A stretch of 64,000 nucleotides of DNA from Anaerolineae bacterium (GCA_039810085.1 JBDHWG010000009.1:12609-76608); one strand, 5' to 3'; positions 11,083 to 61,513 are shown, counted from the stretch's first letter. Translations and numbers: made by a program. The notes: generated from the sequence alone by a model not told the origin.

Positions 11083-11130
11083 GACTTACGTTCTGGGGAG
11101 TATAAATAAGTCTCACCCTGGAGTGAGGAA

Positions 11131-13768: not shown

Positions 13769-13769
13769 C

Positions 13770-14875: not shown

Positions 14876-15068
14876 GAGTTAGTGCTCGGGACCTCCCCGA
14901 TGGGCGGGCCTCCACCTGACAAACGGGCAAGGCGTATCCGCGTGAGAGACGACCTTACAATCCGTTCTCGGGTGGAAGTATAGGAACTCATCTCTCATCC
15001 GGCGATTGGCGTCGTTGCTTGTGTGTTGACTACCGTCAGTCTTGGTGGAATCATACGGATGAGGTTGT

Positions 15069-15353: not shown

Positions 15354-15554
15354 AGGGCGTGATTGAGGTACGTTTCTCGTGTAGCGGGTCGCCGTGTACA
15401 AGATGGTTCTGTTGCGCCAGAGCTGCCGCACTCCGCTCTCTCACTCCTCGTTAGTCGCCTATCGGCTCCCTCCTCGTCGTTCGCTCGCTCCGTTTGACCT
15501 TGGTAGGGTTGATGCAATGTATGACTAACCACGTACAGACGGGATATTGACCAT

Positions 15555-16535
15555 GTGACTTATAATGTCTGCATGACTACAGAACATGGTCGCCAAGTCT
15601 ATGACGAACAATTTAAGGACGAAACAGTACGGGCTCTCGGTGAAAGTGGAATGACACTTACTGCATTTGCTCGGGTTCGAGGGATACCACGAACAACCTT
15701 GTGGGATTGGAAACACGGAGGCATTCAGGGAGAAGAAGCTGTAGGAAGTCCAAGAAGCCTCCTATCCACTGAAGATGGGGAACGACTGCCAACTCGTCCT
15801 AAATTAGGTATATTTATTGACGACGAACCACTCAAATTTAAAAAATGGGAGAGAGTTTTTACACTGGAAGGCTTTGAAAGTCTCACTCCAGATCAAATGC
15901 TCCATGATGGCATGTCGGATACTCAAACTATTCAAGCTTTAGATCAATGGATGGATTTACTAATTCATCTTCCTGACCGAGCTCTCAAAGATGTTGAGAT
16001 TGTGGTCATCGATCAGTTCAATTTCTCTCAGTATCTACAGATGAAAGCAAAACACTTAATAAATCGACTTCGTAGCGTTAACACAATGGCATGGGTTTTG
16101 GAAACTAGTGGAGTGGTTGAGCCACATGTATATGAGGGAACAAATGCTGTTCTTGACGCGCTTGATACCACTCAGGCAATTGACCTAGTAGAAGATGCTC
16201 CATTAACTTTATCAGCTCGTATTCAAGCATTTAAAATATTTACATTGACCCCATTCCTTGAAGCACAAAAGGCCGATACAGTAAATGATGATGAAAAATA
16301 TAGTCCTTCGGAAGGATTGAACAAATTAATAAGTCACAGGAAATTCAATGAAGCACTGGCTGCTATAGGGATATCTGAGAGAGAGTTTTTTAGCATTTTA
16401 GCACTTAAGCGAGATGATGACCTGCGCCCTATTGTGCATGATTTAGGGAATCTCATGGGGCATATGATACTTGATCATGGTGATGAATATTACACAATGT
16501 CGGTAGACAAGCTGCGACGGCTTCTTCGAAGGTAA
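15555..16535 (+). CDS. Hypothetical protein with N-terminal IS3-OrfA-like HTH (HTH_Tnp_1-like) fused to an unassigned AT-rich-encoded domain
   Basis: 326 aa; YDEQFKDETVRALGESGMTLTAFARVRGIPRTTLWDWK resembles IS3/IS911 OrfA HTH; remainder of gene markedly AT-rich relative to surroundings. Confidence 0.5.
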   Translation: MTYNVCMTTEHGRQVYDEQFKDETVRALGESGMTLTAFARVRGIPRTTLWDWKHGGIQGEEAVGSPRSLLSTEDGERLPTRPKLGIFIDDEPLKFKKWERVFTLEGFESLTPDQMLHDGMSDTQTIQALDQWMDLLIHLPDRALKDVEIVVIDQFNFSQYLQMKAKHLINRLRSVNTMAWVLETSGVVEPHVYEGTNAVLDALDTTQAIDLVEDAPLTLSARIQAFKIFTLTPFLEAQKADTVNDDEKYSPSEGLNKLISHRKFNEALAAIGISEREFFSILALKRDDDLRPIVHDLGNLMGHMILDHGDEYYTMSVDKLRRLLRR

Positions 16536-28640: not shown

Positions 28641-28666
28641 TCGATAAAGACAACGCTTCTGCTCTC

Positions 28667-28703
28667 CAAGACCTGACAGGTTTTGGAAACCTGTCAGGTC
28701 TTG
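28667..28703. repeat. Perfect 37-bp palindrome CAAGACCTGACAGGTTTTGGAAACCTGTCAGGTCTTG in the 68-bp intergenic gap between two GT-C genes
   Basis: 17-bp arms read directly; core shared with 39372-39400. Confidence 0.5.
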
Positions 28704-28708
28704 CTTGC

Positions 28709-31700
28709 CTACTGAACATCCACATCCAGCAGCAGGCGATTGTCCGGCTGCGCTGCGCCCGACGTGTCCCGTATGGGAAGCCGCGCCCCAGCCGCGTCGT
28801 ACCACCCAACCGCGATTTGATACTTACCTGGCGCTGTGCCAGGCGGAACAGTGAGGGTGTAGGGGTCCACGACAACCTCGCCCGCCTGCCACCTGCTTGT
28901 CGGATAGTGGCCGAGGCCCGGCGCGCGGTCGACCTGGCTGATAATCGAGCCATCCGGCGCGAGCATATGCACGAAGACCTTATAGTCCACCGGCGTGGGC
29001 GCGTCAGCCTTCCAGTAGAGCGTCACATCCAACGGCGCGCCCGGCGTTGCCTGCACCGCATCGTAGCCGAGCAGATGCGTTGACGCGCCGATAGTCGCGC
29101 CCGCTGCGTGTTGCGGCGGTCGGGGCGGCTGCGTCAGCGCCGTCGGCCCATCTACCCACACCCGGCCTAACACGACCGGCGACGGGAGTAGCGTCGTTCC
29201 GCTCTCGTCGACGACCTGCAACTCCACCGTCGCCGGACCACGCACTGCATCCGCCGCGACCTTGGCATGGCGAATGCCGTTGAAGACGTCGCCCGGCTGC
29301 CAGGCTTCAGGCGCGAGTTGTACCGGCAACAGGCTCTGCGGTGTCTGGGCTGCCGCGCCGCGCGCGTCGCGCACGCTCAGCACGACCCGCGCACCCTTCA
29401 CCGGCCCCGTTGCCTGCCACCACAGCGGCACGTCCACGGTGTCCCCCGGCTTGACGTCCCTATCGCCCTGGAAGCCATGCCCCAGTAAACGCAGGCCCAC
29501 CAGCGTCAGGTCCGCGTCCAGCCGCGCCGGCACGTCCACCTTCGTCGGCGCAGCCCCACGAGCGACGGATACCTTGCCTAAGGTCACGCTCTCCACCGGC
29601 CCGACCGCCTCGTTGTTGTTCGGCTTTTTGAGCCGGACGCGTAGTGTATACTCGCCTGGCGGCGTCGTGGCGGGCAGTGTCAAAGGCATCAGAGTCGTGT
29701 TAGTCGTACCGAGCGCCCAGGTGGTCGCCGGACGCAGTGCGCTATCCCGCAATGGCCGCTCGGCTGTCAACACAATGCCGCCCTCGGGGTCGAGCACATC
29801 GACGGCAGCAACCAGCGGCTCGCTCACCGGCGCGTTGACGCGCCAGGCCAGGCTCACGCCCTCTGGCTTACCAGCTTGCAACGCCGCGCCGCCTGCCCCC
29901 CAGCCGCCAAGGCTCAGCGGCCCCAGGGCCGCATTGGCAGGTTGGCTCGCAGCGGGCGCCGTGCGGAAGCGCCACACTTCCACGTCGGGGAACTTCCTCG
30001 GACCGGACTCAAGTATAGCCGCTTCCCTGAGCGCGTCCAGGGCTGCGCCTGGGTCGCCTTCTGGATAGCGCAGATACCACAGGCGTTGGACGGGCGGCAG
30101 CGCCGCCAATGCCCCCGCCACATCTGACGCCTGGAAGTGGCCGAAGACCTGCGCCACGGGCATCCCCGGCGGCGTCGAGCGCGCCGCCAGCGATGCTCCG
30201 TTGACCACGAAGCCATCGCCGGGTTGCGCCGCCTGCGTGATATACGCCAGGGGGGCGGTCGCCGTCGTGTTGGTGTAGATCCAGGCGTAGTCGATGCCGT
30301 CGATGCTGACCACCTTCAGCGGCTTCTCATCCGGGTTGTCATAGTAGCGGTTCACGAGGCTCTGGTTGCGCTGGCGCTGTACTTCGTTGAGATAAAGGAC
30401 GATGTAGTCCGTCTGGTAGGGGCGAAAGCCCGGCGCGCTGCGTGTCTCGCCGACGAACAGCGGCGCGAACTGCGATACACCCCGCGCCGCCACCTGGAGG
30501 TCGTTCGCATTCGGCAGGGTGTTCAGAAACGCCGCTGCCTGGTCGTAGCCCTCACCCCACCCCACCAGCAGCCAGCGCACGGCCGCCTGCCCGCCACCGA
30601 GGAGCGGGTTGTAGTACGTCAGGTAGTAGGGCGCGTGGGAGACGGCTATCGCCGCTTCCGTCACCAACACCAGCACGACCGCCACGACAGGCAACCACCG
30701 AGCCAGGCTCAGGCTGGCCCGCGCCCGCCGCGCCGCCACCCACCCGGCCAGCCACGTGACAGCGGCGGCAAGCCCCGCGCCCGCCACGAGGTCCAGCGGC
30801 GGGAACATCGGCAGGATGTAGCGGTCGAATTTCTTCGGGCTGAAAGAAATGAGGACGGCGAAGATGAGAGCGTAGCTCGCCAACCCGACAACGGCGTAGA
30901 CGAACGGGGAGGGTGACAGAACGAGCTGGCGCAGCGATCTCCGCGCCCGATACACTGCCGTGCCGACGCCAACGACCACGATGCCCAGCCCCAGCAGCGT
31001 CCAGGGAGAGGCGCGGAAGCCGTAGGCGACGATATACATGAACGGGCCGGGGTCGTCCACAACCTCTTCGTCGAACACGTTGCCGCCCGCGTGGGGGTTA
31101 CCGCCCTCGACCGCCGCTTTGTCCGCCACGCCGCGCACCGTTCCGACCGGGTTACTCCACGCCGACGGCCAGATGAGCAGGACGGCGATCAGCCCACCGA
31201 CGGCGAACAGCAGTGTCGCTCGAATCACCCCCCGCAGCCGCCGGTCGCGCCAGCCGAGGTAGACCAGCATGAGAACGGCCCACGGCCATAGGAACACCGC
31301 CGCCACCTTCTGCACCAGGGCCGCGCCCGCGAGGGCTCCCGCTGCGATGAGCCAGCGCCACGAAGATTCCCCACCCTCGCTCAGATAGGACAGAAACGCC
31401 GAGGCGCTGAGGCGCTCAGAAGAAACGTTTTGATGTTCTTCCTCTGCGTCTCTGCGTCTCTGCGTTTCTATCCTCTTAGCGTCCTCGACTTGTGGGCGAG
31501 TCGTCAGCAGCGTGAGGACGCTCAGCACGAGCAGGCTGCTGAGCGTCGCGTCGAGGTGGAACACGCGACTGTGCGCCATCACGAACGGATCAAAGGCCAG
31601 CAGCGCCAGTCCCAACACCGCCGCGAGCGCGCCGAGCAGCCGCCGCGCCAGCCAGTAGATGGGGATGAGCAGGAGCCAGTTGAACAGGGCGGGCGCGAAG

Positions 31701-32038
31701 CGCATGCGGAACAGAAGCGCCGCCAGGCCAGCGAGCGCCTGGGCATCGACGCCGGACGGCGCGCTCGCATTCTCCGTCGCCCGGCACGTGGCGAGGACAT
31801 CGGGCGCAGCGCCGGGCGGAACGGCCAGCGTGCCCAGCCACATTGTAATGACGCCAGGGTGGCCGGTCAGAAACGTGCTGCGCGGTTGAAGCGACGCGAG
31901 CGCCTGGCCGAACGACAGCGAGCGGCACACCCAACGCAACTCGTCGGCGGCGACGAACACATCGAGGCGGCTCAGTCTTGCCATCAGCGCCGCGAGGAGG
32001 ATGACGACGGCCAGCGCGTCCAGCCAGCGACCTTTCAA
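28709..32038 (-). CDS. GT-C fold membrane glycosyltransferase (PMT_2/ArnT-like) with tandem C-terminal beta-domain repeats (paralog 2)
   Basis: 1109 aa; DEL motif after TM1, many TM helices, C-term repeats (GYDAVQATPGAPLDVTLYWKA...YKVFVHMLAPDG...GKYQIAVGWYDAAGARLP); ATGA overlap with upstream paralog. Confidence 0.75.
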   Translation of the reverse strand: MKGRWLDALAVVILLAALMARLSRLDVFVAADELRWVCRSLSFGQALASLQPRSTFLTGHPGVITMWLGTLAVPPGAAPDVLATCRATENASAPSGVDAQALAGLAALLFRMRFAPALFNWLLLIPIYWLARRLLGALAAVLGLALLAFDPFVMAHSRVFHLDATLSSLLVLSVLTLLTTRPQVEDAKRIETQRRRDAEEEHQNVSSERLSASAFLSYLSEGGESSWRWLIAAGALAGAALVQKVAAVFLWPWAVLMLVYLGWRDRRLRGVIRATLLFAVGGLIAVLLIWPSAWSNPVGTVRGVADKAAVEGGNPHAGGNVFDEEVVDDPGPFMYIVAYGFRASPWTLLGLGIVVVGVGTAVYRARRSLRQLVLSPSPFVYAVVGLASYALIFAVLISFSPKKFDRYILPMFPPLDLVAGAGLAAAVTWLAGWVAARRARASLSLARWLPVVAVVLVLVTEAAIAVSHAPYYLTYYNPLLGGGQAAVRWLLVGWGEGYDQAAAFLNTLPNANDLQVAARGVSQFAPLFVGETRSAPGFRPYQTDYIVLYLNEVQRQRNQSLVNRYYDNPDEKPLKVVSIDGIDYAWIYTNTTATAPLAYITQAAQPGDGFVVNGASLAARSTPPGMPVAQVFGHFQASDVAGALAALPPVQRLWYLRYPEGDPGAALDALREAAILESGPRKFPDVEVWRFRTAPAASQPANAALGPLSLGGWGAGGAALQAGKPEGVSLAWRVNAPVSEPLVAAVDVLDPEGGIVLTAERPLRDSALRPATTWALGTTNTTLMPLTLPATTPPGEYTLRVRLKKPNNNEAVGPVESVTLGKVSVARGAAPTKVDVPARLDADLTLVGLRLLGHGFQGDRDVKPGDTVDVPLWWQATGPVKGARVVLSVRDARGAAAQTPQSLLPVQLAPEAWQPGDVFNGIRHAKVAADAVRGPATVELQVVDESGTTLLPSPVVLGRVWVDGPTALTQPPRPPQHAAGATIGASTHLLGYDAVQATPGAPLDVTLYWKADAPTPVDYKVFVHMLAPDGSIISQVDRAPGLGHYPTSRWQAGEVVVDPYTLTVPPGTAPGKYQIAVGWYDAAGARLPIRDTSGAAQPDNRLLLDVDVQ

Positions 32039-34731
32039 GGCTTCACCGTAATGTGGCCCAGGACAGCGTGGTCGCCCTCGGTATCCGCGCCCTGAGCAAG
32101 CAGGCGCTGGAGCGTTTTGGCATCGTAGAGACCGACGCGCAAGGGGTAGCTGCCCGGCAGCGTGGACGGGTCAATCGAGATACTGCGCGACTCGATAATC
32201 GTCTCGCCCGGCTGCCACTGTGACGTGGGGCTGGCGCCGGATGCGGGCCAGCTGTCACTCTGGCCGTGAATAATGTCGTCCTCGACGTGGGCAAAAACAC
32301 TCAGGTCTGCCCCCACTTTATCCGTTGGCTGCCAGAAGAGCGTCAGGCCGAACGGCTCACCGGCTTTCACAATCGACGAGGTCAGCTCATAGCCCAACAA
32401 CCGCACCGAGCCGAGCATGGCGTCTGTGCGCATGGCGGGCGGCGCTTCCGCGAGCGCCTGGCCGATGGGGAAGGTCGGGCCGAGATATGGGTCGAAGCGC
32501 GCAGCATCCGCCAGGGTGTAGTAGCGCGGGGCAGCCACCGGGTCCCGGCTGTAGATGCGCAGCTTGGGCGCGCCGTCGGCATCCACGTCCGCCAACAGGT
32601 GATACTCCTTCTCGATGCGGTTGAGCGGAATTTTCACCGCGTCCTGCACATCCTGGGCAACGATGTAGTAGCGCGGGTTGGCGGCGGAGCGCACCGCTCC
32701 GCGCGTGTACCAGCCCGTGACCAGCGGCTCCTCGTTGCTGTCGTAGTCGCCCTGGAGCGTGCCGTCGGCGAAAAGCGAGCCGACGATGCTCCAGCCCGCC
32801 TGGTACGGGAAGCCGAAGTAGCCGCTACTCGGGGGACGATCACCATAGACGGCGGGGTACAACGGGCTGCGCGCCGCGGGATAGATGCGTTTATACTCTG
32901 GGCTGTGGCTCACGAACGCTATCCAGATGTAGCCGCCGAGCAACAAAACGAGTAGCCCGCCGACAGCCATGAGGGCAAAGCGCGCCGAGCGCCCGAATCG
33001 CGCCTGGACACCTTGCGCCAGTGCCGCCACGCCAAGGCCCGCGAGAAGCGCCGCGCCGGGCATCATGGTGTAGAAATGGGTGGTCGGCTTCTGCGTCAAG
33101 AAGCTCGCCACCAGGAACGGCCCCAGGAACCACAGGAGTGTCGCCTTCACGCCGTCGTCGAGGCGCGGCGCCAGCGCCCACAGCAAGAGCGGCAGAAAGA
33201 GAAATAGCGAGAGGTTGTACTTGCCAACGCGCAACGCTTCCGGCGCGGCGGCAGCGACCGCCAGGGCCAGCACAGGCCAGGCCAGGGCAAGCCACCGCCC
33301 GTGGCGGAAGCCACGCCAGCCGAGCCAGGCAAACACCGCGACGAGCGCCACGGCGAGCAGGACAATGTACCACGTCGAGTTGTAGAATGTCGCGCGCAGG
33401 AAGTAGTCGGCCAGCTTGTTATACAGCGGCCCACCAGCCGCCGCCGCATTGCCGACGCCGACGCGGCGGTTGATGATATAGTCAACTGTCTCACGGAAGT
33501 GGGGGTGCAGCGCGAACGGCGCGTAGAAGAAGGCCGCAATGGCCGCACATACCGCCGTCGGCGCCATCAGCCCACGCAGCCCACCCCGCCGCCACAGCAG
33601 GTACGCCACCGGCGGGATGGCGAAGACGGCCTCGTAGTGGCCCAGGCTCCCCGCCGCGACGAGCGCCCCTGCGACGACAGCCCACCGCATTCGCCCGCCC
33701 TGGTAGTAGCGCCACGCCGCCCATACCGCGACAATCGATGTGAGCGCGACGATGCTCTGGTACTGCACGATGCGGCCAAACGCCACAAAGTAGCCATCCA
33801 GCGCCAGGATCAGCGCAGCGACCAGCCCCTCACCCCCTAGCCCCCTCTCCCAAAATGGGAGAGGGGGAACAAGAGGGGCGTTCTGGCTCCCCTTCCCCGC
33901 TTGTGGGGGAAGGGGCTGCAAGAGCATGTCATCGCGAGCAGAGCGAAGCGATCCCTCACCGGGAGATTGCTTCGCTGACGCTCGCAATGACACATCAGGG
34001 CCTGACGAGAACAGCCGCCAGCCGAGCGCGCCGATGCCAAATACAGCGGCGACGTTCATCAGGGCGAAGGGCAACCGCGCCGAGGACTCGTCGATGCCAT
34101 CCGTCGCCGCCCAGACGAGCGCCGGCATGAGCACCTCGCCCGGCGCTTTCTTGTGGAAGAACAGGATTTCGCTGCGTCCCTGCCCCAACCCCGCCGCCAT
34201 CAGCATGGCGCGCGCCTCGTCGCCCTGGAACTCGGAGTAGCTCAGGAACGTCAGGCGGAAGACCAGGGCCAGGGCGACCGGGACCGCCAGCCACCACAGA
34301 GCGCGCACGCGAACAATTGCCGGACGCGCGGCGGTCGTTCCGAGGGCCAGCCAGCCCGCCAGAACGAGCAGCGCGCCGTCGAAAGCAAGTAGCACCGGGG
34401 CGCGGGTCATGGGCGTCGGCAGGTAAGCGACCGCGAGGCTCAAGACCAGAGCGCCCGCTACCGCTAGCGCCGCATCGAGGGCGAGGCGCTCCGGCCACGC
34501 GACGCTTTCGCCAGCCATCAACCGCTCGGCGACAAGCACACCGGGCAGAGCAAACAGAACGATGGCAGCCGTAGCGCGGACGAACAAGGGAACGGGGAGG
34601 AAGAGGAGGAGGTTCGCAACCAGCGCGACAGCAAGCGCAACCAGGGCAAACCATGCCCAAGGCCGCGCGGCGAGGCGTGTCGCGGGAGAAGCGGGGCCGG
34701 CGCCGGCCATCGGGAGACCCGAATCGGCCAT
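32035..34731 (-). CDS. GT-C fold membrane glycosyltransferase (paralog 3) carrying an approximately 57-aa low-complexity in-frame insertion
   Basis: 898 aa; GDE motif, TM-rich N-half, C-term LGYELTSSIVKAGEPFGLTLFWQP...VFAHVEDD...GSYPLRVGLYD repeat. Confidence 0.75.
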   Translation of the reverse strand: MADSGLPMAGAGPASPATRLAARPWAWFALVALAVALVANLLLFLPVPLFVRATAAIVLFALPGVLVAERLMAGESVAWPERLALDAALAVAGALVLSLAVAYLPTPMTRAPVLLAFDGALLVLAGWLALGTTAARPAIVRVRALWWLAVPVALALVFRLTFLSYSEFQGDEARAMLMAAGLGQGRSEILFFHKKAPGEVLMPALVWAATDGIDESSARLPFALMNVAAVFGIGALGWRLFSSGPDVSLRASAKQSPGEGSLRSARDDMLLQPLPPQAGKGSQNAPLVPPLPFWERGLGGEGLVAALILALDGYFVAFGRIVQYQSIVALTSIVAVWAAWRYYQGGRMRWAVVAGALVAAGSLGHYEAVFAIPPVAYLLWRRGGLRGLMAPTAVCAAIAAFFYAPFALHPHFRETVDYIINRRVGVGNAAAAGGPLYNKLADYFLRATFYNSTWYIVLLAVALVAVFAWLGWRGFRHGRWLALAWPVLALAVAAAAPEALRVGKYNLSLFLFLPLLLWALAPRLDDGVKATLLWFLGPFLVASFLTQKPTTHFYTMMPGAALLAGLGVAALAQGVQARFGRSARFALMAVGGLLVLLLGGYIWIAFVSHSPEYKRIYPAARSPLYPAVYGDRPPSSGYFGFPYQAGWSIVGSLFADGTLQGDYDSNEEPLVTGWYTRGAVRSAANPRYYIVAQDVQDAVKIPLNRIEKEYHLLADVDADGAPKLRIYSRDPVAAPRYYTLADAARFDPYLGPTFPIGQALAEAPPAMRTDAMLGSVRLLGYELTSSIVKAGEPFGLTLFWQPTDKVGADLSVFAHVEDDIIHGQSDSWPASGASPTSQWQPGETIIESRSISIDPSTLPGSYPLRVGLYDAKTLQRLLAQGADTEGDHAVLGHITVKP
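33826..33995. repeat. Composite palindromic element inside GT-C paralog 3 CDS: G-rich hairpins (33841-33867, 33889-33915) plus a 64-bp imperfect palindrome (33928-33991)
   Basis: CCCCCTCTCCCA-AAA-TGGGAGAGGGGG; CCCCTTCCCC-GCTTGT-GGGGGAAGGGG; GTCATCGCGAGC...GCTCGCAATGAC also seen at 50548-50610 and 59213-59249. Confidence 0.5.
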
Positions 34732-50611: not shown

Positions 50612-51628
50612 TTAAACCCGGCTTGGGACGCGCTCGTTGCGCAGCGCCGTCAGGTCCGCCTCGACCATCATCTCCACCATCTGCTCGAACGAGACGTCCG
50701 GTGTCCACCCCAACTCCGTCCGCGCCTTGGTCGCGTCGCCAACCAGCAAATCCACCTCGGCCGGGCGCAAGTCCGACGGGTTGACGTAGACGTAGTCTTC
50801 CCAATTGAGGCCCACACACCCAAACGCCACCTCGCACAGCCGACGGACCGAGTGGGTCATCCCCGTCGCCACAACGTAGTCGCCGGGCGCGGGCTGCTGG
50901 AGCATCAGCCACATGGCGCGAACGTAGTCCGGCGCGAAGCCCCAGTCGCGCTGCGCCTCCAGGTTGCCCAGGGGCAGGCGGTCGACCAGGCCGAGCTTGA
51001 TCTTGGCGGCGTGATACGTCACCTTGTGGGTCACGAACTCAAGGCCACGGCGCGGCGACTCGTGGTTGAACAGAATGCCGGAGCAGGCGAACAGGTCGTA
51101 GCTCTCGCGGTAGTTGACCGTGATCCAGTGGCCGTAGACCTTTGCCACGCCGTAGGGACTGCGCGGGTAGAACGGCGTGCGCTCAGTCTGCGGCACCTCC
51201 TGCACCTTGCCGAACATCTCGGAGCTGGATGCCTGGTAAAACCGGATGTCCGGATCCACCATCCGAATCGCGTCGAGGACGCGCGTGACGCCAAGCGCGG
51301 TCGCCTCGCCGGTGAACACCGGCTGCACCCATGACGTTGGCACGAAGCTCTGCGCGGCAAGATTGTAGACCTCGTGGGGCCGCGTCTCACGGAGGATGGA
51401 CATGAGCGACACTTCGTCCATCAAGTCGCCCGGTACGAGGGTAATCTGATCCTGGATGTGGCGGATGCGGTCGAAGTTGACGGTGCTGGTGCGCCGCACC
51501 ATGCCGATGACCTCGTAGCCCTGCTCCAGGAGCAGTTCTGCCAGATACGAACCATCCTGGCCGGTGATTCCGGTAATCAATGCGCGCTTTCGCTGCGACA
51601 CGCTTGGTACTCCCTTCTTGTGCCCCAC
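50612..51628 (-). CDS. gmd: GDP-mannose 4,6-dehydratase
   Basis: [25 protein letters not shown]...[11 protein letters not shown]...[10 protein letters not shown] canonical GMD. Confidence 0.9.
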
Positions 51629-51668: not shown

Positions 51669-52634
51669 CTACACTTCTGGCCGCGTCACCTGACTCACTC
51701 GGCCACGCCAATAATCCAGGATATCCTGGAGACTCTGTTGGAATGGAATTTCAGGCTCCCACCCCGTGGCCGCTTTGAGACGACGCGGGTCACACACCGT
51801 CAGGGGCATGTCGACCGGGCGGAAGCGCGCCGGGTCAACCTCCACGCGAATCTCGGCATGGCTGAGAGCAATCAAACCTTCGAGCAAACTCCGCACACTG
51901 CGTGCAACCCCGCTGCCGACATTGTAGACCTCGCCAGGCTCGCCGTGGAGAGCGAGCAGCCAGTAGGCGCGCACAACGTCCCGCACGTCCGTGTAATCGC
52001 GTTCGGCCGCCAGGTTGCCCACCTTTACCACCGCGTCCCGCTCGCCCGCCTCGATCTGTGCAATCTGCTCCGCAAACGCAGCGGCAACGAAGTCTGGCCG
52101 CTGGCGCGGGCCGATATGCGGGAAGGGGCGCACACGAATGGCGGGAATGCCGTGGCTGAGGAAGTATTGCAGACCTAGCAAGTCCTGCGTCACCTTACTC
52201 ACGGCATACGGGCTTGTCGGGCGCAGCGGCGTGTCCTCGTCGATGGGCAGGTCCGCCGGGCGAACAGCGCCATACTCTTGCTCAGAGCCGACGACGATGA
52301 TACGCGCGCCTAGGCCCAGCTCGGCCATAACAGAGAGGAGGTTGACCTGGGTATGGATATTCGTCTCCAGGGTGTCCCACGGGTCACGCCAGGAGATGGC
52401 AACAGCCGCCTGAGCCGCCAGGTGGAAGATGACGTCCGGCATGGCGGCGCGCAAGATGGCGACCACCGCATCTCGGTCGCGGAGGTCGCCGTATAAGAGC
52501 TTCACATCGGCTGGTAGGGGCGCTAATGGCGCTTCGAGGACGACGCCCCACACCTGGCATTCTGTGTGGGATGTCAGATAATCCGCCAGATGGCTGCCGG
52601 CAAAGCCGGCGATACCGGTCACTAAAGCACGCAC
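51669..52634 (-). CDS. NAD-dependent epimerase/dehydratase, GDP-4-keto-6-deoxy-D-mannose reductase (Rmd)-like
   Basis: 321 aa from GTG 52634 (RBS AAGGGGG); [14 protein letters not shown], catalytic SPYAVSKV; adjacent to gmd. Confidence 0.7.
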
Positions 52635-52701
52635 GTCGCCCCCTTTCGGGTCAATCCTATGCAAAATGAGCGCAGAACGCAAAATACCATTGGACAAACT
52701 G

Positions 52702-52730
52702 CTTGACAAGTGGTTATGTATGCGATACAA
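52702..52730 (+). promoter_or_regulatory. Consensus sigma70-type promoter TTGACA-N17-TACAAT upstream of DUF4332 gene
   Basis: TTGACA 52702-52707, 17-nt spacer, TACAAT 52725-52730; RBS GAAGGAGG precedes ATG 52793. Confidence 0.5.
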
Positions 52731-52792
52731 TGCCTAGTGAGTAGTCGCCACTTTACTACCCTACTACCTAGCTTGGGCGAAGGAGGCCCGCG

Positions 52793-53200
52793 ATGGCAAA
52801 CATGCGCATTGGTGAGATTCGGGGGATGACCGCGGATGTAGCGACGAAGCTGAAAGCCCTCGGCATCACCGACTCCAACAGACTCTTCGAGAAAGCCCAC
52901 ACTCTTGTCGACCGTCGAAATCTAGCGAAGGAATTGGGGGTGGAGGCCAGCCAGGTCCTCGAGTACTTCAACCGCGCCGACCTGGCTCGTATCAAAGGTA
53001 TCGGGCCGCAGTTCTCGAACCTCCTCGAGGACGCCGGCGTCGATAGTGTCAAGGAACTGGCTCACCGCCGCGCCGACAACCTCTATCAGAAGCTGACAGA
53101 GGTGGCGAAGGCCGGCGGCCAGGTCAAGCGTCTGCCGCGCCCGGCTGACGTTGAGAAGTGGATCGATCAGGCGAAGGAGATAGCGAAAGCCGGCGAATAG
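52793..53200 (+). CDS. DUF4332-like HhH-containing protein
   Basis: 135 aa; two LxxIKGIGPxxxxxLxxAGV-like helix-hairpin-helix segments. Confidence 0.55.
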   Translation: MANMRIGEIRGMTADVATKLKALGITDSNRLFEKAHTLVDRRNLAKELGVEASQVLEYFNRADLARIKGIGPQFSNLLEDAGVDSVKELAHRRADNLYQKLTEVAKAGGQVKRLPRPADVEKWIDQAKEIAKAGE

Positions 53201-53302
53201 CCCGCCTGTCGCCCTGAGCCTTGTCCTTGAGCTATGCGAAGGAAGTGCGAAGGGCCTCGACGGACAGGGGATGTTTCGCTTACCATGACATCGGCGCAGA
53301 GA

Positions 53303-53333
53303 GTGGCCCGCGCATGCGCGCGGGCCACTTTGC
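53303..53333. terminator. Hairpin GTGGCCCGCGC-ATG-GCGCGGGCCAC followed by TTTG between convergent DUF4332 and metK genes
   Basis: 11-bp GC stem read directly; T-tract short. Confidence 0.45.
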
Positions 53334-53345
53334 ATTCGCAGTCAC

Positions 53346-54587
53346 TCAGTCGCCCACCGGCACGCCAACCTCGGCGGGCAGGCCCGCTTCACGGCGCAGC
53401 GTCTCGGCCTTATCCGTCGCTTCCCAGGGCGCATCGATGTCCGTTCGACCGAAGTGGCCGTACGCCGCCGTCGCACGATAAATCGGCCGGCGCAGGCGCA
53501 GGTCACGGATGATCGCGCCGGGGCGCAGATCAAAGTGCGCGAAGATGAGGTCCCGAATCGTCGCCTCGGACACGCGCGCCGTGTCGAACGTCTCGAAGGT
53601 AATGGAGACAGGGTGCGCCACACCGATGGCGTAGGCCAGTTGAACCTCAAAGCGGTCCGCCAGGCCCGCCGCGACGACGTTCTTCGCCACGTAGCGCGCC
53701 GCGTACGCTGCGGAGCGGTCCACCTTCGTCGGGTCCTTGCCGGAGAACGCGCCGCCGCCGTGCCGCGCCATGCCGCCGTACGTGTCGGCGATAATCTTGC
53801 GGCCGGTCACGCCGGAGTCACCCATCGGGCCGCCGGTTACGAAGCGGCCGGTGGGGTTGATATAGTAGTGCGTCTTGTCGTCCAGCAGGTACGCGGGAAC
53901 GGCGTGCTTGACGACTGTATCGATGACTGCATCGGTCAACGCGCGGTGACTAATCTCCGGGCTGTGCTGGGTGGAGACGACGATGGTGTCCACGCGCACC
54001 GGACGGCCGCGCTTGTACTCCACGGTGACCTGCGACTTGCCGTCGGGGCGCAGGAAGGGTAGCTCGCCCGACTTGCGTACCGCCGACAGGCGGCGGGTGA
54101 TGTCGTGGGCGAGGGAGATGGGCATGGGCATAAGCGTGTCGGTCTCGCGGCACGCGAAGCCGAACATCATCCCCTGATCGCCCGCGCCCACCGCCTCGAC
54201 GTCTTCCTCGGTCATGTGGCCGACCTTCGCCTCCAGGGCTTTGTCGACGCCGAGGGCGATGTCGGGTGACTGCTCGTGGATCGAGCTAATGACCGCGCAG
54301 GTATTGAAGTCGAACCCGTAGTCGGCGTGGGTATAGCCGATATCCCGGACCGTCTCACGAATCAGGGTCGGCACATCCGCCCAGGCGTTGGTCGTCACCT
54401 CGCCGATGACCATGACCATGCCCGTCGTCGTGGCCGTCTCGACAGCGACGCGGGACAGCGGGTCCTGGGCGATGAGGGCGTCGAGAATAGCGTCCGACAC
54501 CTGGTCGCAAATCTTGTCCGGGTGCCCCTCCGTCACCGACTCGGAGGTAAACACGTATCGATCCGCCGACATGAAAGAATCTGACAT
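53346..54587 (-). CDS. metK: S-adenosylmethionine synthetase
   Basis: [25 protein letters not shown]...[12 protein letters not shown]...hexapeptide [19 protein letters not shown]. Confidence 0.95.
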
Positions 54588-54668
54588 GGCAATCCTCTTA
54601 AGGCTTCAAAGGCGTCGCTCAATGGGTGCCGCGCCGGAGCGACCCGCGGCGCGCGTCGATGGGTCGGA

Positions 54669-55943
<1,275 letters not shown>

Positions 55944-55987
55944 TCATTCTCCTTCAACAGTTCGTTGTAATTAGCTTAGTTATGCGG

Positions 55988-56776
55988 TCACGGGCGGCGG
56001 ACGCCGCTGACCTCGATGAACTCGCACCACGGGCGAAAGCCCAATCGCGTGTATGCTGCGCGAGCCGGCGCGTTGTCGCGAGCGACGTTCAGCACCACAT
56101 CCTGCACGCCCAACTCATAACACGCCGCGACGACGGCGCTCGTGCATGTCTGCGCCAGGCCGCGCCCGCGATAGGTCGGCGCGGTGTAGACGTTGCCCAC
56201 GGCCGCGACGCCCATCTCCGGCGCTACCAGGTGCGTCCCTGCCACGGCCACAAGCCCGCCGTCGCTCTCGATTCCATAAAACAGCCCTTGCGCGACCTGG
56301 AACGGCGCGAAAGCATCAGGCCCATCGCCCATGCCCGACGCGTACAACCGCGTCAGCGCCGCCATGTCCGACGCCACAAGCCGTCGGGGCGCGTCGCCGT
56401 TCACGGCCGGCGGGCGGAAGTCCGCCCGCGACAGCCCCATGCGCAACATCGCGTCGGGCCGGCCTAGCTCATAAGCATTGTCGATAGGGGGCCAGTGGCC
56501 CGGCTCCATCACAAAGTGCAGCCACTCCGGCAGGCCGCCTTCGGCAATCAGCGCCGCGACGCCGTTTACTGCACCGATGGTGAGGCAAATCGACGGCGTC
56601 AGGCCGCGGAACAGTAGCGCCAATGCCACATCCTGCCCTGCCTCAACCGCGAACGTCCATTCGCATAACGCGAACAGCGACGGCTCCAGGTCGCCCAGGG
56701 CATACGCGCCCCAGACGCGGTCCTGGTTCAGGAACGCCTCGATACGCGCGCGGTCCGCCGTGCGCTGAATCTCCAC
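55988..56776 (-). CDS. GNAT family N-acetyltransferase
   Basis: Motif A YRGRGLAQTCTSAVVAAC...NAPARAAYTRLGF. Confidence 0.7.
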   Translation of the reverse strand: MEIQRTADRARIEAFLNQDRVWGAYALGDLEPSLFALCEWTFAVEAGQDVALALLFRGLTPSICLTIGAVNGVAALIAEGGLPEWLHFVMEPGHWPPIDNAYELGRPDAMLRMGLSRADFRPPAVNGDAPRRLVASDMAALTRLYASGMGDGPDAFAPFQVAQGLFYGIESDGGLVAVAGTHLVAPEMGVAAVGNVYTAPTYRGRGLAQTCTSAVVAACYELGVQDVVLNVARDNAPARAAYTRLGFRPWCEFIEVSGVRRP

Positions 56777-57753
56777 TAGCCGCGCACCGCCAGCCGCTCC
56801 CAGACCTGGCCGGTCGGGCGCATGTCGTAGGCGAAGTGCTCGAAGTGGGTGAAGTGCTTGAACTCCTCGTAGCGAGCAGCAATTTCCTCCGTCTCGAGAG
56901 TCTTGAGACGGTTGACGCTGAAATCTTCGACGACGAACGAGGCGACGACGCTGCCATGCACGATAGCCCGCTTCATGGCGCCAATCGTGATCGCCCCGCT
57001 GCGCGCCAGGTAGCCCATGAAGCCGCCGGCGAAGGAGTCGCCCGCGCCCGTCGGGTCCTGGATTTTCTCTAGAGGGTAGGCAGGAATAAAGAAGTTGGAC
57101 GAGATGGGATTCTCGCCGTTGGCGAACATGGCCGCGCCGTACTCGCCCTTCTTGATAATCAGCACGCTCGGCCCCAGGTCCAAAATCTTGCGCGCCGCGC
57201 GGATGAGACTGAACGTCTTGGCGAACTGCTTGGTCTCAGCCTCGTTGATAATGATGACATCGGCCAGGCGGAATGCCTCGGTCAAGACATCACGCTTGTA
57301 GTCGATCCAGTAATTCATCGTGTCCAGGACGACGAGCTTGGGCTTGCGCACCTGCTGGAGCACTTCGATCTGAACCTCCGGGTCGATGTTCGCCAGGAAC
57401 ACGTACTCCGCGTCCTTGTACGACTCGGGCAGCGTCGGGTGGAACGTGGCGAACACGTTGAGCTGCGTGTCGAGCGTCTGGGCGGTGTTCATGTCGTAGT
57501 CGTAGCGGCCCGACCAGCGGAAAGTCTTGCCGTCGGCCACCTGTAGCCCCGACAGGTCAATGTTGCGCGAGCGCAAGAAGTCGATGCCTTCAGCCGGAAA
57601 GTCCGCGCCAACCACCCCGACAAGATCAACTTGGTCGAACAGGCTGGCTGCCGCTGAGAAGTAGACGGCCGAGCCGCCCAGGGCATCCTTGACCTTGCCG
57701 AAAGGTGTCTGGATCGAGTCCAGCGCCAGTGAACCCACAACGAGAATACTCAC
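56776..57753 (-). CDS. PfkB-family carbohydrate/nucleoside kinase (adenosine kinase-like)
   Basis: N-term GSLALDSI...GGSA and C-term DPTGAGDSFAGGF signature; lies between mtnA and ahcY/metK. Confidence 0.8.
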   Translation of the reverse strand: MSILVVGSLALDSIQTPFGKVKDALGGSAVYFSAAASLFDQVDLVGVVGADFPAEGIDFLRSRNIDLSGLQVADGKTFRWSGRYDYDMNTAQTLDTQLNVFATFHPTLPESYKDAEYVFLANIDPEVQIEVLQQVRKPKLVVLDTMNYWIDYKRDVLTEAFRLADVIIINEAETKQFAKTFSLIRAARKILDLGPSVLIIKKGEYGAAMFANGENPISSNFFIPAYPLEKIQDPTGAGDSFAGGFMGYLARSGAITIGAMKRAIVHGSVVASFVVEDFSVNRLKTLETEEIAARYEEFKHFTHFEHFAYDMRPTGQVWERLAVRG

Positions 57754-57765
57754 GAGCGACTCCCC

Positions 57766-58830
57766 TTACTCTGCGATGTTCGAGCTTGACCGCTGGCGGG
57801 CGCGCTCGACGGCTTCGCGCAGGCCCGTCTCATACGGCGGGCGCACAACGCCCTCCTCGGTAATGATAGCCGTGATGTAGCGCGCAGGCGTCACATCAAA
57901 GGCCGGGTTTGCCACAGCCACACCCTCCGGCGCGACACGTTCGCTCCCGACGTGGGTCACTTCACGCGGGTCGCGCTCCTCGATGGGAATGTCCGCGCCG
58001 GTCGGCGTGTTGAGGTCAACAGTCGATGTCGGCGCAACGACGTAGAACGGGATGCCGTTCTCTTTCGCCACGACCGCCAGCTTGTACGTGCCAATCTTGT
58101 TGGCCGTGTCGCCGTTGGCCGCGATGCGGTCCGCGCCGACGAGGCACAGGTCCACCTTGCCCGACGCCAGGAAGTAGCCGGACGCGTTGTCGGCGATGAG
58201 GGTCTGGGGAATGCCCATCTCCTTCAGCTCCCACGCCGTGAGCTTGGCCCCCTGGAGCCGGGGGCGCGTCTCGTCCACCAGGACGTGCAGGTGCTTGCCT
58301 TGCTCGTGGGCCGCCCGGACGACGCCCAGCGCCGTCCCGAAGTCTACCGTCGCTAGTGCGCCGGTGTTGCAGTGGTGGATGACCGTCGCGCCATCCGGGA
58401 CGAGATCCGCGCCGAACGTGCCCATGCGCCGGTTCAAGGCGACGTCTTCATCCGCCAGAGCCTCGGCCTCGTCGAGCACCGCCGCGCGAATCGCGTCCGC
58501 GTCGCCTTCGGTAGCCTGCGCCCGCCGCAGCAGACGGTCCAGGCCCCAGCGCAGATTGGCCGCCGTGGGTCGCGCGGCGTCAATCTCGTCGGCTGCCCGC
58601 TCCAACTCGGTCAGCAGGGCAGCGCGGTCTGTCGCAGGGCTGCTGGCCGCCGCGAGGGCCAGAGCGAACGCGCCCGTTGCCCCAATCGCCGGCGCACCGC
58701 GCACCACCATGTCCTTGATCGCCGCGGCCACGTCCCGGTAGTCGGTGTACTCGACGACGACAAACTGGTTGGGCAGCGCCCGCTGGTCGATCATTCTCAC
58801 TTTGCCGTCATGCCAATCGACGGTTCGCAT
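57766..58830 (-). CDS. mtnA: Methylthioribose-1-phosphate isomerase (eIF-2B alpha/beta/delta family)
   Basis: [56 protein letters not shown]. Confidence 0.85.
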
Positions 58831-58861
58831 CAGCCTTCTCTTGTCGTTGGTGCGTCAACAC

Positions 58862-59049
58862 AAAAAAATGTCTCTCCATGCGCACAGAGAGACACTGCTG
58901 CAAGGTCTCTCATCTTTCAGGCGCTTCGCCTGCCGGAGTTGGCACCAGGCGCGGATGATCTCGGCTGGCGAGCTTACGCTCGCGTCACGATCCGGGCTGG
59001 TTGCCGGGGCTTCACAGGGCCGTTCCCTCCACCCCTCTGGATAAGAGCC
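58862..59049 (-). ncRNA. SAM-I (S-box) riboswitch with intrinsic terminator, in the leader of the mtnA-pfkB-GNAT-ahcY-metK operon
   Basis: Minus-strand RNA reads CUCUUAUCCAGAGGGGUGGAGGGAACGGCCCUGUGAAGCCCCGGCAACC...GGUGCCAACUCCGGCAGGCGAAGCGCCUGAAAGAUGAGAG, then terminator GUCUCUC-N10-GAGAGAC-AUUUUUUU. Confidence 0.8.
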
Positions 59050-59212
59050 AATCTTTAATTGTCGCAGAATACTAGCACACTCACGCCGCCGGGTCAAATT
59101 AGGGCCGGCCCTTGTGAAGAGGACGGCCGGGGTGCGGGGGCGATAGCCCCTGCCGACAAAGCAATCTTTCGGCAGGCGACAGACGGTCTGAGCGGTTATA
59201 GCGTGACTATCA

Positions 59213-59249
59213 CCCGTCGGGAGATTGCTTCGCGTTCGCTCGCAACGAC
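59213..59249. repeat. Partial (3-prime half) copy of the 64-bp palindromic repeat family, just downstream of ccmC stop
   Basis: CCCGTCGGGAGATTGCTTCGCGTTCGCTCGCAACGAC matches CGGGAGATTGCTTCGCTGACGCTCGCAATGAC of copy 1. Confidence 0.35.
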
Positions 59250-59253
59250 GCGG

Positions 59254-59967
59254 TTAGCTCGGTTGCACTTCAGCCGTGACGGGCTGCGGGTGGGCAGCGA
59301 CCTCGATCCGGTCGCGCTCCACTTCCAGGGACACGCGCAGCGCCATCAAGAAGACATACACCAGGGTGAACGAGAGCATGCCGGCCACCAGGGCCAAGAC
59401 CATCGGCTCGCTCATCGCCGGGCCGCCGGGCCGCACGACAATGGGCTGCGGGTGCAGCGTGCGCCACCAGAGGACGGCGAAGTGGATGATGGGGATGTCC
59501 AGCGCCCCGACGATACCAACGATGGCGGCGAGGCGGGCGCGGCGCTCCGGGTCGTCCAGCGCGCTGCGCAGCATCAGGTAGCCCACGTAGATGAGCCACA
59601 TGATGAGGAAGCTGGTCAGGCGCGCATCCCAGGTCCAGTACGTGCCCCACTCCAGCTTACCCCACAGCATGCCGGAAATGAGGGTAATCGTCGTGAACAG
59701 CACGCCGATTTCGGCTGACGCCAGGGCGATAATATCCCAGACATGGGTGCGCCGCCACAGGTAGAGGATGCTGGCGATAGCGACGACGCCAACGGCGAGA
59801 TACGACGCCCAGGCGGATGGCGCGTGGAAATACAGAATGCGGATCGTGTCCCCCATCGTGCGCTCTGGGGGCGACCAGACCAGGCCCAGGTAGAGGGTAA
59901 CGAGCATCGAGATGGCCGTGGCAATCCCCAGACCCCCCACAATCGGTCTCAAACGTTTGGTGGTCAT
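59254..59967 (-). CDS. ccmC: Cytochrome c-type biogenesis heme exporter protein C
   Basis: WWD domain LWGKLEWGTYWTWDARLTSF. Confidence 0.85.
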   Translation of the reverse strand: MTTKRLRPIVGGLGIATAISMLVTLYLGLVWSPPERTMGDTIRILYFHAPSAWASYLAVGVVAIASILYLWRRTHVWDIIALASAEIGVLFTTITLISGMLWGKLEWGTYWTWDARLTSFLIMWLIYVGYLMLRSALDDPERRARLAAIVGIVGALDIPIIHFAVLWWRTLHPQPIVVRPGGPAMSEPMVLALVAGMLSFTLVYVFLMALRVSLEVERDRIEVAAHPQPVTAEVQPS

Positions 59968-59969
59968 GT

Positions 59970-60755
59970 TTACTCCTCAATCACATAGCCAAAGACAAGC
60001 ATACCGACAACCAGGAACACGATATCGAAGGCGGCCAGCATTGTCAACGGCGGGCCGAGGTCCTCACCGCCGCCCCGCAGAACGATGCCCGTCGCGCCGA
60101 CCGCCGTGATGACGACGGGCACGAGAATCGGGAAGAGCAGGATGGGCAAAAGGACCTCGCGGGTGCGCGTATTGGCGGCAATCGCCGCGAAGATCGTCCC
60201 GGCCGCCACGAAACCAAGCGTTCCCATGAATATTACGGGAATCAGGTCGAGTCGGATGGGTTGGTTGTTGAGCAGGCTGTAGACCGGCACAATCACCAGC
60301 TCCATGACTGACATGAAGATGAGCGTGCTGATGAGCTTGCCCAGGTAGATGGCGCTGCGGTCCATCGGGGCGAGCATCAGCCCCTCCAGCGCGCCGCGAT
60401 CCTTTTCCAAGGCAAAGCTGCGGTTCAGGCCCAGGATACCTGCGAAGATGAAGGCCACCCAGAGAATACCCGGCCCGATGAGGTCCATCTCCGCTCGGCG
60501 CAGGTCGAACGCGAAGTTGAAGATGAGCACGACGAGCAGGCCGAAGACCAGCGTCGCCGACAGAATCTCTTTGGTGCGCCGCTCGGCGAGGAGGTCCTTC
60601 CAGACCAAGGCCCATACCTGGCGCGCATACTGCGTCGGCCCGTAGGCCGGGGCGGGGCGGGCCGTCCAGCGCTCGGCCGGCGCAGGAAACACCTCCGGCG
60701 CGTCCACCGCCATCTCCGGCGCATCAGACATCGCCGGGCTAGGAGGGCGGCTCAC
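59970..60755 (-). CDS. ccmB: Heme exporter protein B (ABC permease)
   Basis: 261 aa, 6 TM; 4-nt overlap with ccmA and 2-nt gap to ccmC. Confidence 0.8.
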   Translation of the reverse strand: MSRPPSPAMSDAPEMAVDAPEVFPAPAERWTARPAPAYGPTQYARQVWALVWKDLLAERRTKEILSATLVFGLLVVLIFNFAFDLRRAEMDLIGPGILWVAFIFAGILGLNRSFALEKDRGALEGLMLAPMDRSAIYLGKLISTLIFMSVMELVIVPVYSLLNNQPIRLDLIPVIFMGTLGFVAAGTIFAAIAANTRTREVLLPILLFPILVPVVITAVGATGIVLRGGGEDLGPPLTMLAAFDIVFLVVGMLVFGYVIEE

Positions 60756-61513
60756 GCGCTAGCTCCTGCAGCGGCGTGGGACGCAGCGACATACGCCTCA
60801 GCCAGCTCGCCTGGTCGTAGCGACGCGCAGTCGGCGGCGTACACCAGGCGGCCGCCCGCCAGAATCGCAACGCGGTCCGCGATGGCAGCGCCGCGATCCA
60901 GGTCGTGGCTTGTCATGAGAATGGTGTGGCCCTGGCGCTTCAGCACCCCGAGCATCTCCGTCAGCCAGTCCATCGCCGCCGGGTCCAGCCCTGTATACGG
61001 CTCGTCTAGCAAGAGGAGGCGTGGGTCATGGAGCAGAGCACGAGCAATGGCAACACGCTGCTGCATGCCGCGCGAGAACTGCCGCACCGGCTGGTTGGCG
61101 CGGTGGATAAGGCCAACGCGCTCCAGAAGCTCGGCGGCTCGGATTGTTCCCTGGGGCAAATCATACAGTCGGGCGAAGAAGACGAGGTTTTCCCGCGCGG
61201 TCAGGTCGGGGTAGAGCAAGGGCTGATGCGAGACGAAGCCCAGGAGGCGACGCGCGGCGATATCGTTGGCCTGCGCCACCATCCCGCTCAGGCGAATCTC
61301 GCCGCCGGTCGCTTTGCCGAGGCCGGCGACGATGCGCATCAACGTTGTCTTGCCCGCGCCGTTGGGGCCAAAGAGCGTCACGACCTCGCCGTCGCGGATA
61401 TCCACGTCAACCTCGCGCAGCGCCCAGAAGCTGCCAAAACGCTTGGAGAGACGCCGAACGCTGAGGAGCGCGGGAGCATCGGAAACTGGGGTGGAAGAGA
61501 ATACCTGACTCAT
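60752..61513 (-). CDS. ccmA: Heme exporter ATP-binding protein A (ABC ATPase)
   Basis: Walker A FGPNGAGKTTL, signature/Walker B LLLDEPYTGLD. Confidence 0.85.
   Translation of the reverse strand: MSQVFSSTPVSDAPALLSVRRLSKRFGSFWALREVDVDIRDGEVVTLFGPNGAGKTTLMRIVAGLGKATGGEIRLSGMVAQANDIAARRLLGFVSHQPLLYPDLTARENLVFFARLYDLPQGTIRAAELLERVGLIHRANQPVRQFSRGMQQRVAIARALLHDPRLLLLDEPYTGLDPAAMDWLTEMLGVLKRQGHTILMTSHDLDRGAAIADRVAILAGGRLVYAADCASLRPGELAEAYVAASHAAAGASA

Follow-up and report, generated by a model that had tools for sequence, protein, structure and literature searches.

The S-box leaders of metK and mtnKA (ykrTS) in Bacillus subtilis are the founding SAM-I riboswitches. Bacillus itself lacks ahcY, because Firmicutes use the Pfs/LuxS route. 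S-box control of metK is long established (PMC4239095), and S-box control of mtnA (COG0182) has also been noted (PMC2211319). For the Chloroflexi, the SAM regulon was first reconstructed from five cultured genomes (Sun et al. 2013, BMC Genomics 14:597; PMC3766115). Additional file 1 of that study lists, for Herpetosiphon and Chloroflexus, an operon of the type described below under a SAM riboswitch, with the kinase slot labelled 'adk', and Additional file 5 places ahcY and mtnA among the SAM-regulated recycling genes.

Other RNA elements also stand ahead of ahcY. The SAH riboswitch is an ON switch, through which SAH induces ahcY. This element (RF01057) has been described as preceding ahcY in beta/gamma-Proteobacteria and in Mycobacteriaceae (PMC3766115, PMC4239095). 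The SAM-Chlorobi motif (RF01724) is found upstream of metK-ahcY in Chlorobi, and in-line probing of this motif was negative (Weinberg et al. 2010, PMC2864571).

We analyzed a stretch of 64,000 nucleotides (64 kb) from an Anaerolineae bacterium, referred to as the window. On its minus strand, a SAM-I leader precedes five closely spaced genes, which were assigned by family profiles as follows.

57766-58830, minus strand: mtnA, S-methyl-5-thioribose-1-phosphate isomerase (TIGR00512, 432.9 bits against a cut-off of 279; NF004326, 464.5 bits; PF01008)
56776-57753, minus strand: PfkB-family kinase (PF00294)
55988-56776, minus strand: tandem-GNAT acyltransferase (PF00583 and related families over residues 160-250)
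54669-55943, minus strand: ahcY, S-adenosylhomocysteine hydrolase (TIGR00936, 642.1 bits against a cut-off of 497.6)
53346-54587, minus strand: metK, bacterial-type SAM synthetase (TIGR01034, 589.2 bits against a cut-off of 309.4)

The order that marks membership in the published operon type (Sun et al. 2013; RegPrecise), with SAM-I upstream of mtnA and then kinase, ahcY and metK, was found in the window. The likeness to the Chloroflexi operon of Sun et al. extends to the phylum, to the position of SAM-I directly upstream of mtnA, to the kinase in the 'adk' slot, to ahcY-metK as the last genes and to the presence of an extra gene between kinase and ahcY; judged from position only, Cagg_3563 would correspond to the GNAT gene. 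Unlike the published operon, the window has no Cagg_3561-type gene, and mtnA and the PfkB gene are 12 nt apart. A tblastn search with the approximately 350-aa proteins of two related loci, L004 and L034 (related loci are numbered from L001), detected no such gene in the window. L002, L019 and L087 lack it too, which makes it a variable component. The kinase differs as well, being a 3kd6-like PfkB protein with 24% identity to the M. tuberculosis (Mtb)-type adenosine kinase of L002 and L034. The combined operon described in the first-pass annotation is not new, as it was already catalogued for Chloroflexi in 2013 (PMC3766115, Additional file 1). The riboswitch-operon arrangement is already known for the phylum, and the window shows this architecture without the Cagg_3561-type gene; the regulon known from cultured Chloroflexi is now extended to uncultured Anaerolineae.

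Compared with the B. subtilis S-box leaders, the leader in the window belongs to the same family (RF00162), follows the classical S-box logic of terminator and antiterminator, with a P1 3' strand that is common to the antiterminator, and precedes targets of the same kinds, metK and mtnA. In Bacillus, however, metK and the salvage genes form separate S-box units, whereas in the window one leader precedes all of them; the window leader further differs by a 50-nt insert in P3 and by a short (9 bp) antiterminator. The SAH riboswitch is similar in being an RNA sensor ahead of ahcY and methyl-cycle genes, but it belongs to another family, responds to another ligand and acts as an ON switch, whereas in the window ahcY would be repressed by SAM. 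This contrast with the many Proteobacteria in which ahcY is induced by an SAH-sensing ON switch is implicit in the published regulon tables. The SAM-Chlorobi motif shares with the window the placement of a leader element before an operon joining metK and ahcY, but it is an unrelated RNA with an unproven ligand, the gene order is metK-ahcY, and mtnA is missing.

The leader was identified with cmscan (Rfam 15, gathering thresholds), which returned a single match in the 64-kb window, to RF00162 (SAM-I/S-box) at 58907-59047 on the minus strand. The match covered model positions 1-108 of 108 with 85.8 bits (E = 6.5e-19), about twice the gathering score of 44.4, and RF00162 was the best family of clan CL00012 for this segment. 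Rfam scans gave no match to the SAH riboswitch (RF01057) in the window. A permissive scan of 52500-59300 (E ≤ 1) revealed no second RNA element other than a chance-level match to CRISPR-DR36 (19.6 bits, below the gathering score of 38; E = 0.97), and an internal SAH, SAM-II or similar RNA within the operon was rejected on this basis. The aptamer and its variable part are located as follows.

58907-59047, minus strand: SAM-I (S-box) aptamer, four-way junction P1-P4 (RF00162; covariation in 11 sequences)
58949-58998, minus strand: extended P3, an insert of 50 nt against 15 nt in the Rfam consensus (cmscan alignment; MFE fold)

P1 is formed by 59047-59040 and 58914-58907. The S-box motifs that the first-pass annotation had quoted, CUCUUAUC (59047-59040), GGUGGAGGGA, GGCCC, GCAACC, GGUGCCAA and GAAAGAUGAGAG (ending at 58907), were all present on the minus strand; the segment it had delimited, 58862-59049, matches the aptamer plus terminator almost exactly, and the Rfam scan it had suggested as a check gave the score reported above. 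The putative P2 kink-turn (GGUGGAGGGA...UGAAGCC, with tandem G.A) and the residues of J1/2, J3/4 and J4/1 fit the consensus at the sequence level, and the residues assigned to the kink-turn and junction, G18 G19 A20 and G35 A36 A37, were unchanged in the aligned sequences of 7 aptamers. The P2 loop and J3/4 are complementary as the SAM-I pseudoknot requires, the window allowing three Watson-Crick pairs (C26-G, G27-C and G28-C), with A.G at the fourth position. The aptamer differs from the RF00162 consensus only by the 50-nt P3 insert, which in the MFE fold is an unbroken continuation of the P3 helix. Judged by these sequence features, 58907-59047 is a SAM-I riboswitch, an ordinary and well-formed member of a textbook class, and would be expected to bind SAM.

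The P3 insert varies greatly in size among relatives: it measures only a few nt in L002 but exceeds 100 nt in L004 and L005 (P3 compared at 58949-58998 in the window, L004 1704-1912, L005 7738-7939 and L008 2604-2792). In L004 the insert includes GAAATTA/GAGATTA-like repeats in tandem, which pair with repeats resembling CCAA(C/T)TT.

Conservation of the aptamer was evaluated in a sample of 80 loci with relatives of the downstream MtnA, taken from GTDB species representatives. The nearest relatives of the window were Anaerolineae and other Chloroflexota MAGs, the closest being L001, with an MtnA 91% identical to that of the window. Rfam placed SAM-I immediately ahead of mtnA in six of the 12 nearest loci. 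These aptamers were used to build a covariance model (R1), which, when run on the 80 MtnA loci, matched upstream of mtnA in 9 of them as well as in the window; one unrelated copy was found in L042, and 2 further matches came from loci fetched later. In an alignment of 11 aptamers, which was fitted to the model and is thus biased toward pairing, 98.4% of the cells were standard pairs, compared with 40-49% when partners were slid by 1-3 columns. Ten pairs had changed on both sides in a compensatory manner (2 in P1, 3 in P2 and 5 in P4), the basal pairs of P3 were unchanged, and none of 500 shuffles reached the observed covariation values. The P1 and P4 covariation on which the first-pass annotation had made its reading depend is therefore present. 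For the pseudoknot, 88.6% of the cells paired across the 11 sequences; two of its four columns were invariant, and 119-146 of 500 shuffles did equally well, so that covariation of the pseudoknot is without significance in a set of this size.

The elements flanking the aptamer correspond to a promoter and to two alternative hairpins.

59069-59097, minus strand: sigma-70-type promoter (promoter scan; 9 of 12 matches plus TG)
58887-58911, minus strand: antiterminator hairpin (fold of the isolated segment)
58862-58896, minus strand: intrinsic terminator (terminator scan, with a 13-pair hairpin at 58896-58867 plus T-run; fold)

The promoter is composed of a -35 box TTGACC (59097-59092), a 17-nt spacer, an extended -10 TG (59077-59076) and a -10 box TAGTAT (59074-59069), and the predicted transcription start lies about 15 nt before P1. 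When the window was aligned with L001, similarity started exactly at the -35 box, upstream of which the sequences were unalignable; identity covered the -35 and -10 boxes, aptamer, antiterminator, terminator and U-run, and was then lost until the ribosome binding site (RBS) and start codon. The terminator stem of 12-13 bp (58896/58895-58884 with 58879-58868/58867) encloses a GCGC loop, and the hairpin has a predicted energy of -15.2 kcal/mol. On the minus strand it reads GUCUCUC...GAGAGAC, followed by A and then U7 (58868-58862), which ends 31 nt upstream of the mtnA ATG. The terminator sequence is nearly identical in L001, and a hairpin with a U-run was found in all 12 of 12 related leaders, 7-21 nt past P1.

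In the antiterminator, 58911-58903 pairs with 58896-58887 (9 bp and one bulge, -11.1 kcal/mol). The first of these segments is made up of the final five nt of the P1 3' strand and the next 4 nt, the second belongs to the terminator 5' arm, and through these common nucleotides the antiterminator is mutually exclusive with both P1 and the terminator. An equivalent pairing between P1 3' strand and terminator 5' arm was predicted for 11 of the 12 related leaders. The terminator with its U7 tract, as well as the alternative pairing of its 5' arm with the 3' strand of the aptamer, had both been proposed in the first-pass annotation and were recovered here by terminator scan and folding.

In a nearest-neighbour model without ligand, P1 plus terminator reached -79.8 kcal/mol compared with -72.7 kcal/mol for the antiterminated form, and the terminator hairpin by itself was stronger than the antiterminator. 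A thermodynamically dominant antiterminator was rejected, as forcing it costs approximately 7 kcal/mol. Given that the terminator state is favored in silico even without ligand, any switching must be kinetic, i.e. co-transcriptional, and the modelled energies thus point to a kinetic choice between antiterminator and terminator.

We consider it highly probable that this SAM-I leader, with its promoter and its terminator/antiterminator, controls mtnA-PfkB-GNAT-ahcY-metK by SAM negative feedback. The leader RNA would start from the promoter at 59097-59069, and its first approximately 140 nt would fold as a canonical SAM-I aptamer. At high SAM, the ligand would bind the aptamer and lock P1, leaving 58896-58884 free to pair with 58879-58867, so that the hairpin and U7 would halt RNA polymerase before mtnA. 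At low SAM, P1 would stay unlocked during elongation and 58911-58903 would capture 58896-58887 once the latter had emerged; the antiterminator formed in this way would block the terminator and permit read-through of all five genes as far as the GC hairpin at 53329-53302. The functions brought under SAM feedback would be SAM synthesis (MetK), SAH hydrolysis (AhcY), probable adenosine removal (PfkB) and one step of MTA salvage (MtnA). The most likely role of the riboswitch is to switch off a SAM-recycling operon of five genes.

The extent of the operon was assessed from the gene borders and from the region beyond metK. In the order mtnA-PfkB-GNAT-ahcY-metK, a 12-nt gap follows mtnA, the PfkB and GNAT genes overlap by 1 nt, and gaps of 44 nt and 81 nt precede ahcY and metK, in line with the minimal spacing claimed in the first-pass annotation; the family profiles likewise confirmed the five gene identities it had given. 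The mtnA gene has an RBS, GAGAAGG, at 58840-58834 and its ATG at 58830 on the minus strand, the RBS being outside both alternative leader structures. The intergenic gaps are unstructured (z from -0.7 to +0.7) with an RBS in each, and internal terminators or other structures were rejected because the gaps folded no better than their shuffles. On the minus strand, a consensus scan for sigma-70-type sites detected nothing promoter-like within the operon; as the scan is limited to sites of this type, internal promoters may still exist before ahcY or metK. The features at the end of the operon are listed below.

53302-53329, minus strand: operon-end hairpin, perfect 12 bp and GC-rich (fold)
52793-53200, plus strand: DUF4332 gene, 135 aa (120 bits), convergent with metK

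The hairpin begins 17 nt past the metK stop codon, between metK and the convergent DUF4332 gene, for which a near-consensus promoter (TTGACA-17-TACAAT, 11 of 12 matches) is found at 52703-52731 on the plus strand. The operon-end region of 81 nt folds with -37.2 kcal/mol (z = -3.5), and none of 200 shuffles was as stable. No U-tract follows the hairpin on the minus strand. The element is likely the 3' end of the operon, and it is the sole strong hairpin predicted beyond the leader. An ORF of 137 aa at 52922-53335 on the minus strand was rejected as a sixth operon gene: it is Arg-rich, has no family match, runs antisense to the DUF4332 gene and should be discarded from the annotation as spurious. 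The arrangement of the genes suggests co-transcription of all five, from mtnA to metK.

The same linkage of SAM-I, mtnA, ahcY and metK was found in L002, L005, L008, L019, L034, L070, L083 and L087, and the full layout of the window (SAM-I, mtnA, kinase, ahcY and metK in order) in L002, L008, L019, L034, L083 and L087. The riboswitch-operon design is common to 11 other Chloroflexota loci. The genes inserted after the SAM-I/mtnA leaders vary and include the approximately 350-aa protein, MtnP, an archaeal-type SAM synthetase, DUF5671 and others. In nine related loci (L013, L015, L020, L022, L030, L033, L038, L060 and L071), mtnA is followed by ahcY a few kb downstream, with neither SAM-I nor any other Rfam riboswitch detected at gathering score; some of these loci also have a GNAT gene or metK. 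That R1 was too narrow and had missed riboswitches was rejected, because the standard Rfam scan of these nine R1-negative loci was also without SAM-I. The absence of SAM-I is thus real there, and mtnA and ahcY can be linked without the riboswitch.

These nine loci bear on an alternative that we regard as unlikely, namely that the riboswitch is real but limited to the promoter-proximal genes (mtnA and perhaps PfkB-GNAT), with ahcY and metK expressed mainly from internal promoters. Such a division would also suit the highly variable gene content between mtnA and ahcY in the relatives and the position of the two largest gaps, 44 nt and 81 nt, directly before ahcY and metK, where the scan would have detected sigma-70 consensus sites only. 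Against it, neither gap has a promoter-like site on the minus strand, the gaps are short and unstructured and contain an RBS only with no internal terminator, at least 8 loci show the order that ends in ahcY-metK behind a SAM-I/mtnA leader, and the sole strong hairpin after the leader is located downstream of metK. Control of all five genes by the SAM-I leader is the reading we retain.

Several sibling loci had features of their own. L003, an Anaerolineaceae locus without SAM-I, has a cobalamin riboswitch (RF00174, 58.7 bits) at 9115-9257 on the plus strand, directly downstream of mtnA, which suggests that the neighbouring gene is under a different regulatory layout. An archaeal-type SAM synthetase (PF01941; NF003363, 656 bits) is present in some sibling operons (L008 7148-8362 and 9806-11011, L005 11231-12436 and L011 4394-5602 for the sibling SAM synthetase genes), and in L008 the archaeal-type enzyme and a bacterial metK both lie behind one SAM-I leader. 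The approximately 350-aa protein, marked by a GS(L/I/V)PH motif, recurs directly after mtnA in sibling loci (L004 3007-4047, L008 4076-5116, L011 1416-2450, L034 9143-10195 and L005 9104-10171). Of two copies subjected to a family scan, that of L004 matched methionine synthase weakly and below threshold (NF002119, 33 bits, cut-off 258), and that of L005 gave no family match. This protein is probably Cagg_3561 of Sun et al. 2013.

AhcY releases adenosine and depends on the removal of its reaction products, so that an adenosine kinase is in keeping with the methyl cycle. The best solved relative of the PfkB protein in the window is PDB 3kd6, with 324 bits and about 55% identity over 306 residues. 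This structure was deposited as 'Carbohydrate kinase, PfkB family', and we take it to be that of a nucleoside kinase from Chlorobium tepidum, solved with AMP; the literature searched contained no mention of 3kd6. The protein scored below every NCBIfam equivalog cut-off, the best being nucleoside kinase with 63.7 bits against 450. In L002, the kinase in the same slot matched the M. tuberculosis adenosine kinase structures (2pkf/4o1g) with 244 bits, and the slot of L013 and L034 belongs by N-terminal similarity to the same Mtb-type PfkB subfamily. Close homology to an experimentally characterized adenosine kinase was not found for the PfkB protein of the window, whose identity to the Mtb-type kinase of L002, a member of a different PfkB subfamily, is just 24% (44 bits). 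Gene context and slot equivalence, rather than family membership, indicate that it is probably an adenosine/nucleoside kinase serving the AhcY reaction, with adenosine as the presumed substrate, and we suggest annotating the gene provisionally in this way. The first-pass annotation had grouped methionine salvage and the activated-methyl cycle in one operon; its gene content holds, while the PfkB protein is better read as a probable adenosine kinase of the methyl cycle than as part of MTA salvage.

The PfkB protein might instead be a non-orthologous 5-methylthioribose (MTR) kinase that feeds MtnA, an assignment we find improbable. The 12-nt gap that places it directly after mtnA, and its failure to reach any NCBIfam equivalog cut-off, would both be compatible with such a role, as would the content of the 64-kb window, in which neither mtnP nor mtnK was found (tblastn searches of the window with MtnP, a MetE-like protein, archaeal MAT and Mtb-type AdoK were all negative). 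In L019, however, mtnP and a PfkB gene of the window type share one operon; MtnP makes MTR-1-P directly, so that an MTR kinase would be redundant there. Homologs of the M. tuberculosis adenosine kinase moreover occupy the slot in L002 and, as N-terminal similarity indicates, those of L013 and L034, and the PfkB-GNAT pair also occurs away from mtnA (L085). The similarity to 3kd6, presumably a nucleoside kinase with AMP, speaks against the assignment too, as does the 'adk' label given to this slot by Sun et al. (PMC3766115). The L019 operon and the adenosine kinase homologs of the sibling slots led us to disfavor an MTR kinase and to keep the reading as a probable adenosine/nucleoside kinase.

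The GNAT gene starts within the PfkB gene, overlapping its stop codon by 1 nt. The family of the encoded protein has over 800 members, most of them from Chloroflexota, which bear generic names only. Its AlphaFold model (pLDDT 93.7) has a two-lobed tandem-GNAT fold, in which the N-terminal lobe is conserved but without Pfam match, and the predicted acyl-CoA-binding loop, R-G-R-G-x-A, is conserved. The closest fold matches were 3ec4 (uncharacterized), the bovine glycine N-acyltransferase GLYAT (7pk1, TM 0.75), VipF and MshD; deducing a specific function from them was rejected, as they are generic tandem-GNAT proteins only. The tightly abutting PfkB-GNAT pair is kept in three other loci at 45-48% identity (48% for the GNAT of L083).

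55988-57753, minus strand: PfkB-GNAT pair of the window
L083, 5015-6888: PfkB-GNAT pair
L085, 5016-6774: PfkB-GNAT pair
L087, 5010-6810: PfkB-GNAT pair

In L083 and L087 the pair lies inside SAM-I/mtnA...ahcY-metK operons, and in L085 it lies among unrelated genes. It is conceivable, though doubtful, that PfkB and GNAT, as a translationally coupled pair, form a two-enzyme module for an undescribed step in the recycling of SAM, adenosine or methionine by-products; such a module may, for example, phosphorylate and N-acylate a by-product that resembles a nucleoside or an amino acid. Otherwise, the two would be an ordinary adenosine kinase beside an unrelated acetyltransferase. Any potential for novelty at this locus is confined to this conserved pair, and the GNAT gene is flagged here as a conserved, methyl-cycle-associated gene without assigned substrate.

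Translational or Rho-dependent control, or an additional action in trans of the terminated leader of approximately 185 nt as a small RNA, is very improbable. In its favor, the in silico energetics do not favor the antiterminator, a stable terminated leader would be made whenever SAM is high, and trans action is reported for other SAM-I leaders (for example in the Desulfovibrio vulgaris preprint 10.1101/803072). Against it, a canonical hairpin-U7 lies 31 nt before the start codon with the RBS outside both alternative structures, hairpin and U-run are kept in 12 of 12 related leaders, and nothing points to a trans target. SAM-dependent termination ahead of mtnA is thus the mechanism we prefer for this leader.

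Outside the operon, ccmA/B/C-like heme-exporter genes (59254-61513, minus strand) are located directly upstream of the riboswitch promoter. Genes of this type are also found upstream in L001 (6937-7647) and L083 (499-2715), and the neighbourhood is thus conserved beyond the operon. Near the start of the window, an N6/N4 DNA methylase gene (3063-4343, plus strand) adjoins a pair of McrC-like (4359-5678, minus strand) and AAA_5 McrB-like (5680-7380, minus strand) genes, and four large ORFs without Pfam match are found at 8712-9977, 10033-11082, 11131-12588 and 15555-16535; the regions 3063-7380 and 8712-16535 may represent a defence island. Three tandem genes at 25845-34731 on the minus strand encode PMT_2-type glycosyltransferase membrane proteins of about 900-1100 aa, and further along the window there are sugar-nucleotide genes, gmd at 50612-51628 and an epimerase/dehydratase gene at 51669-52730.
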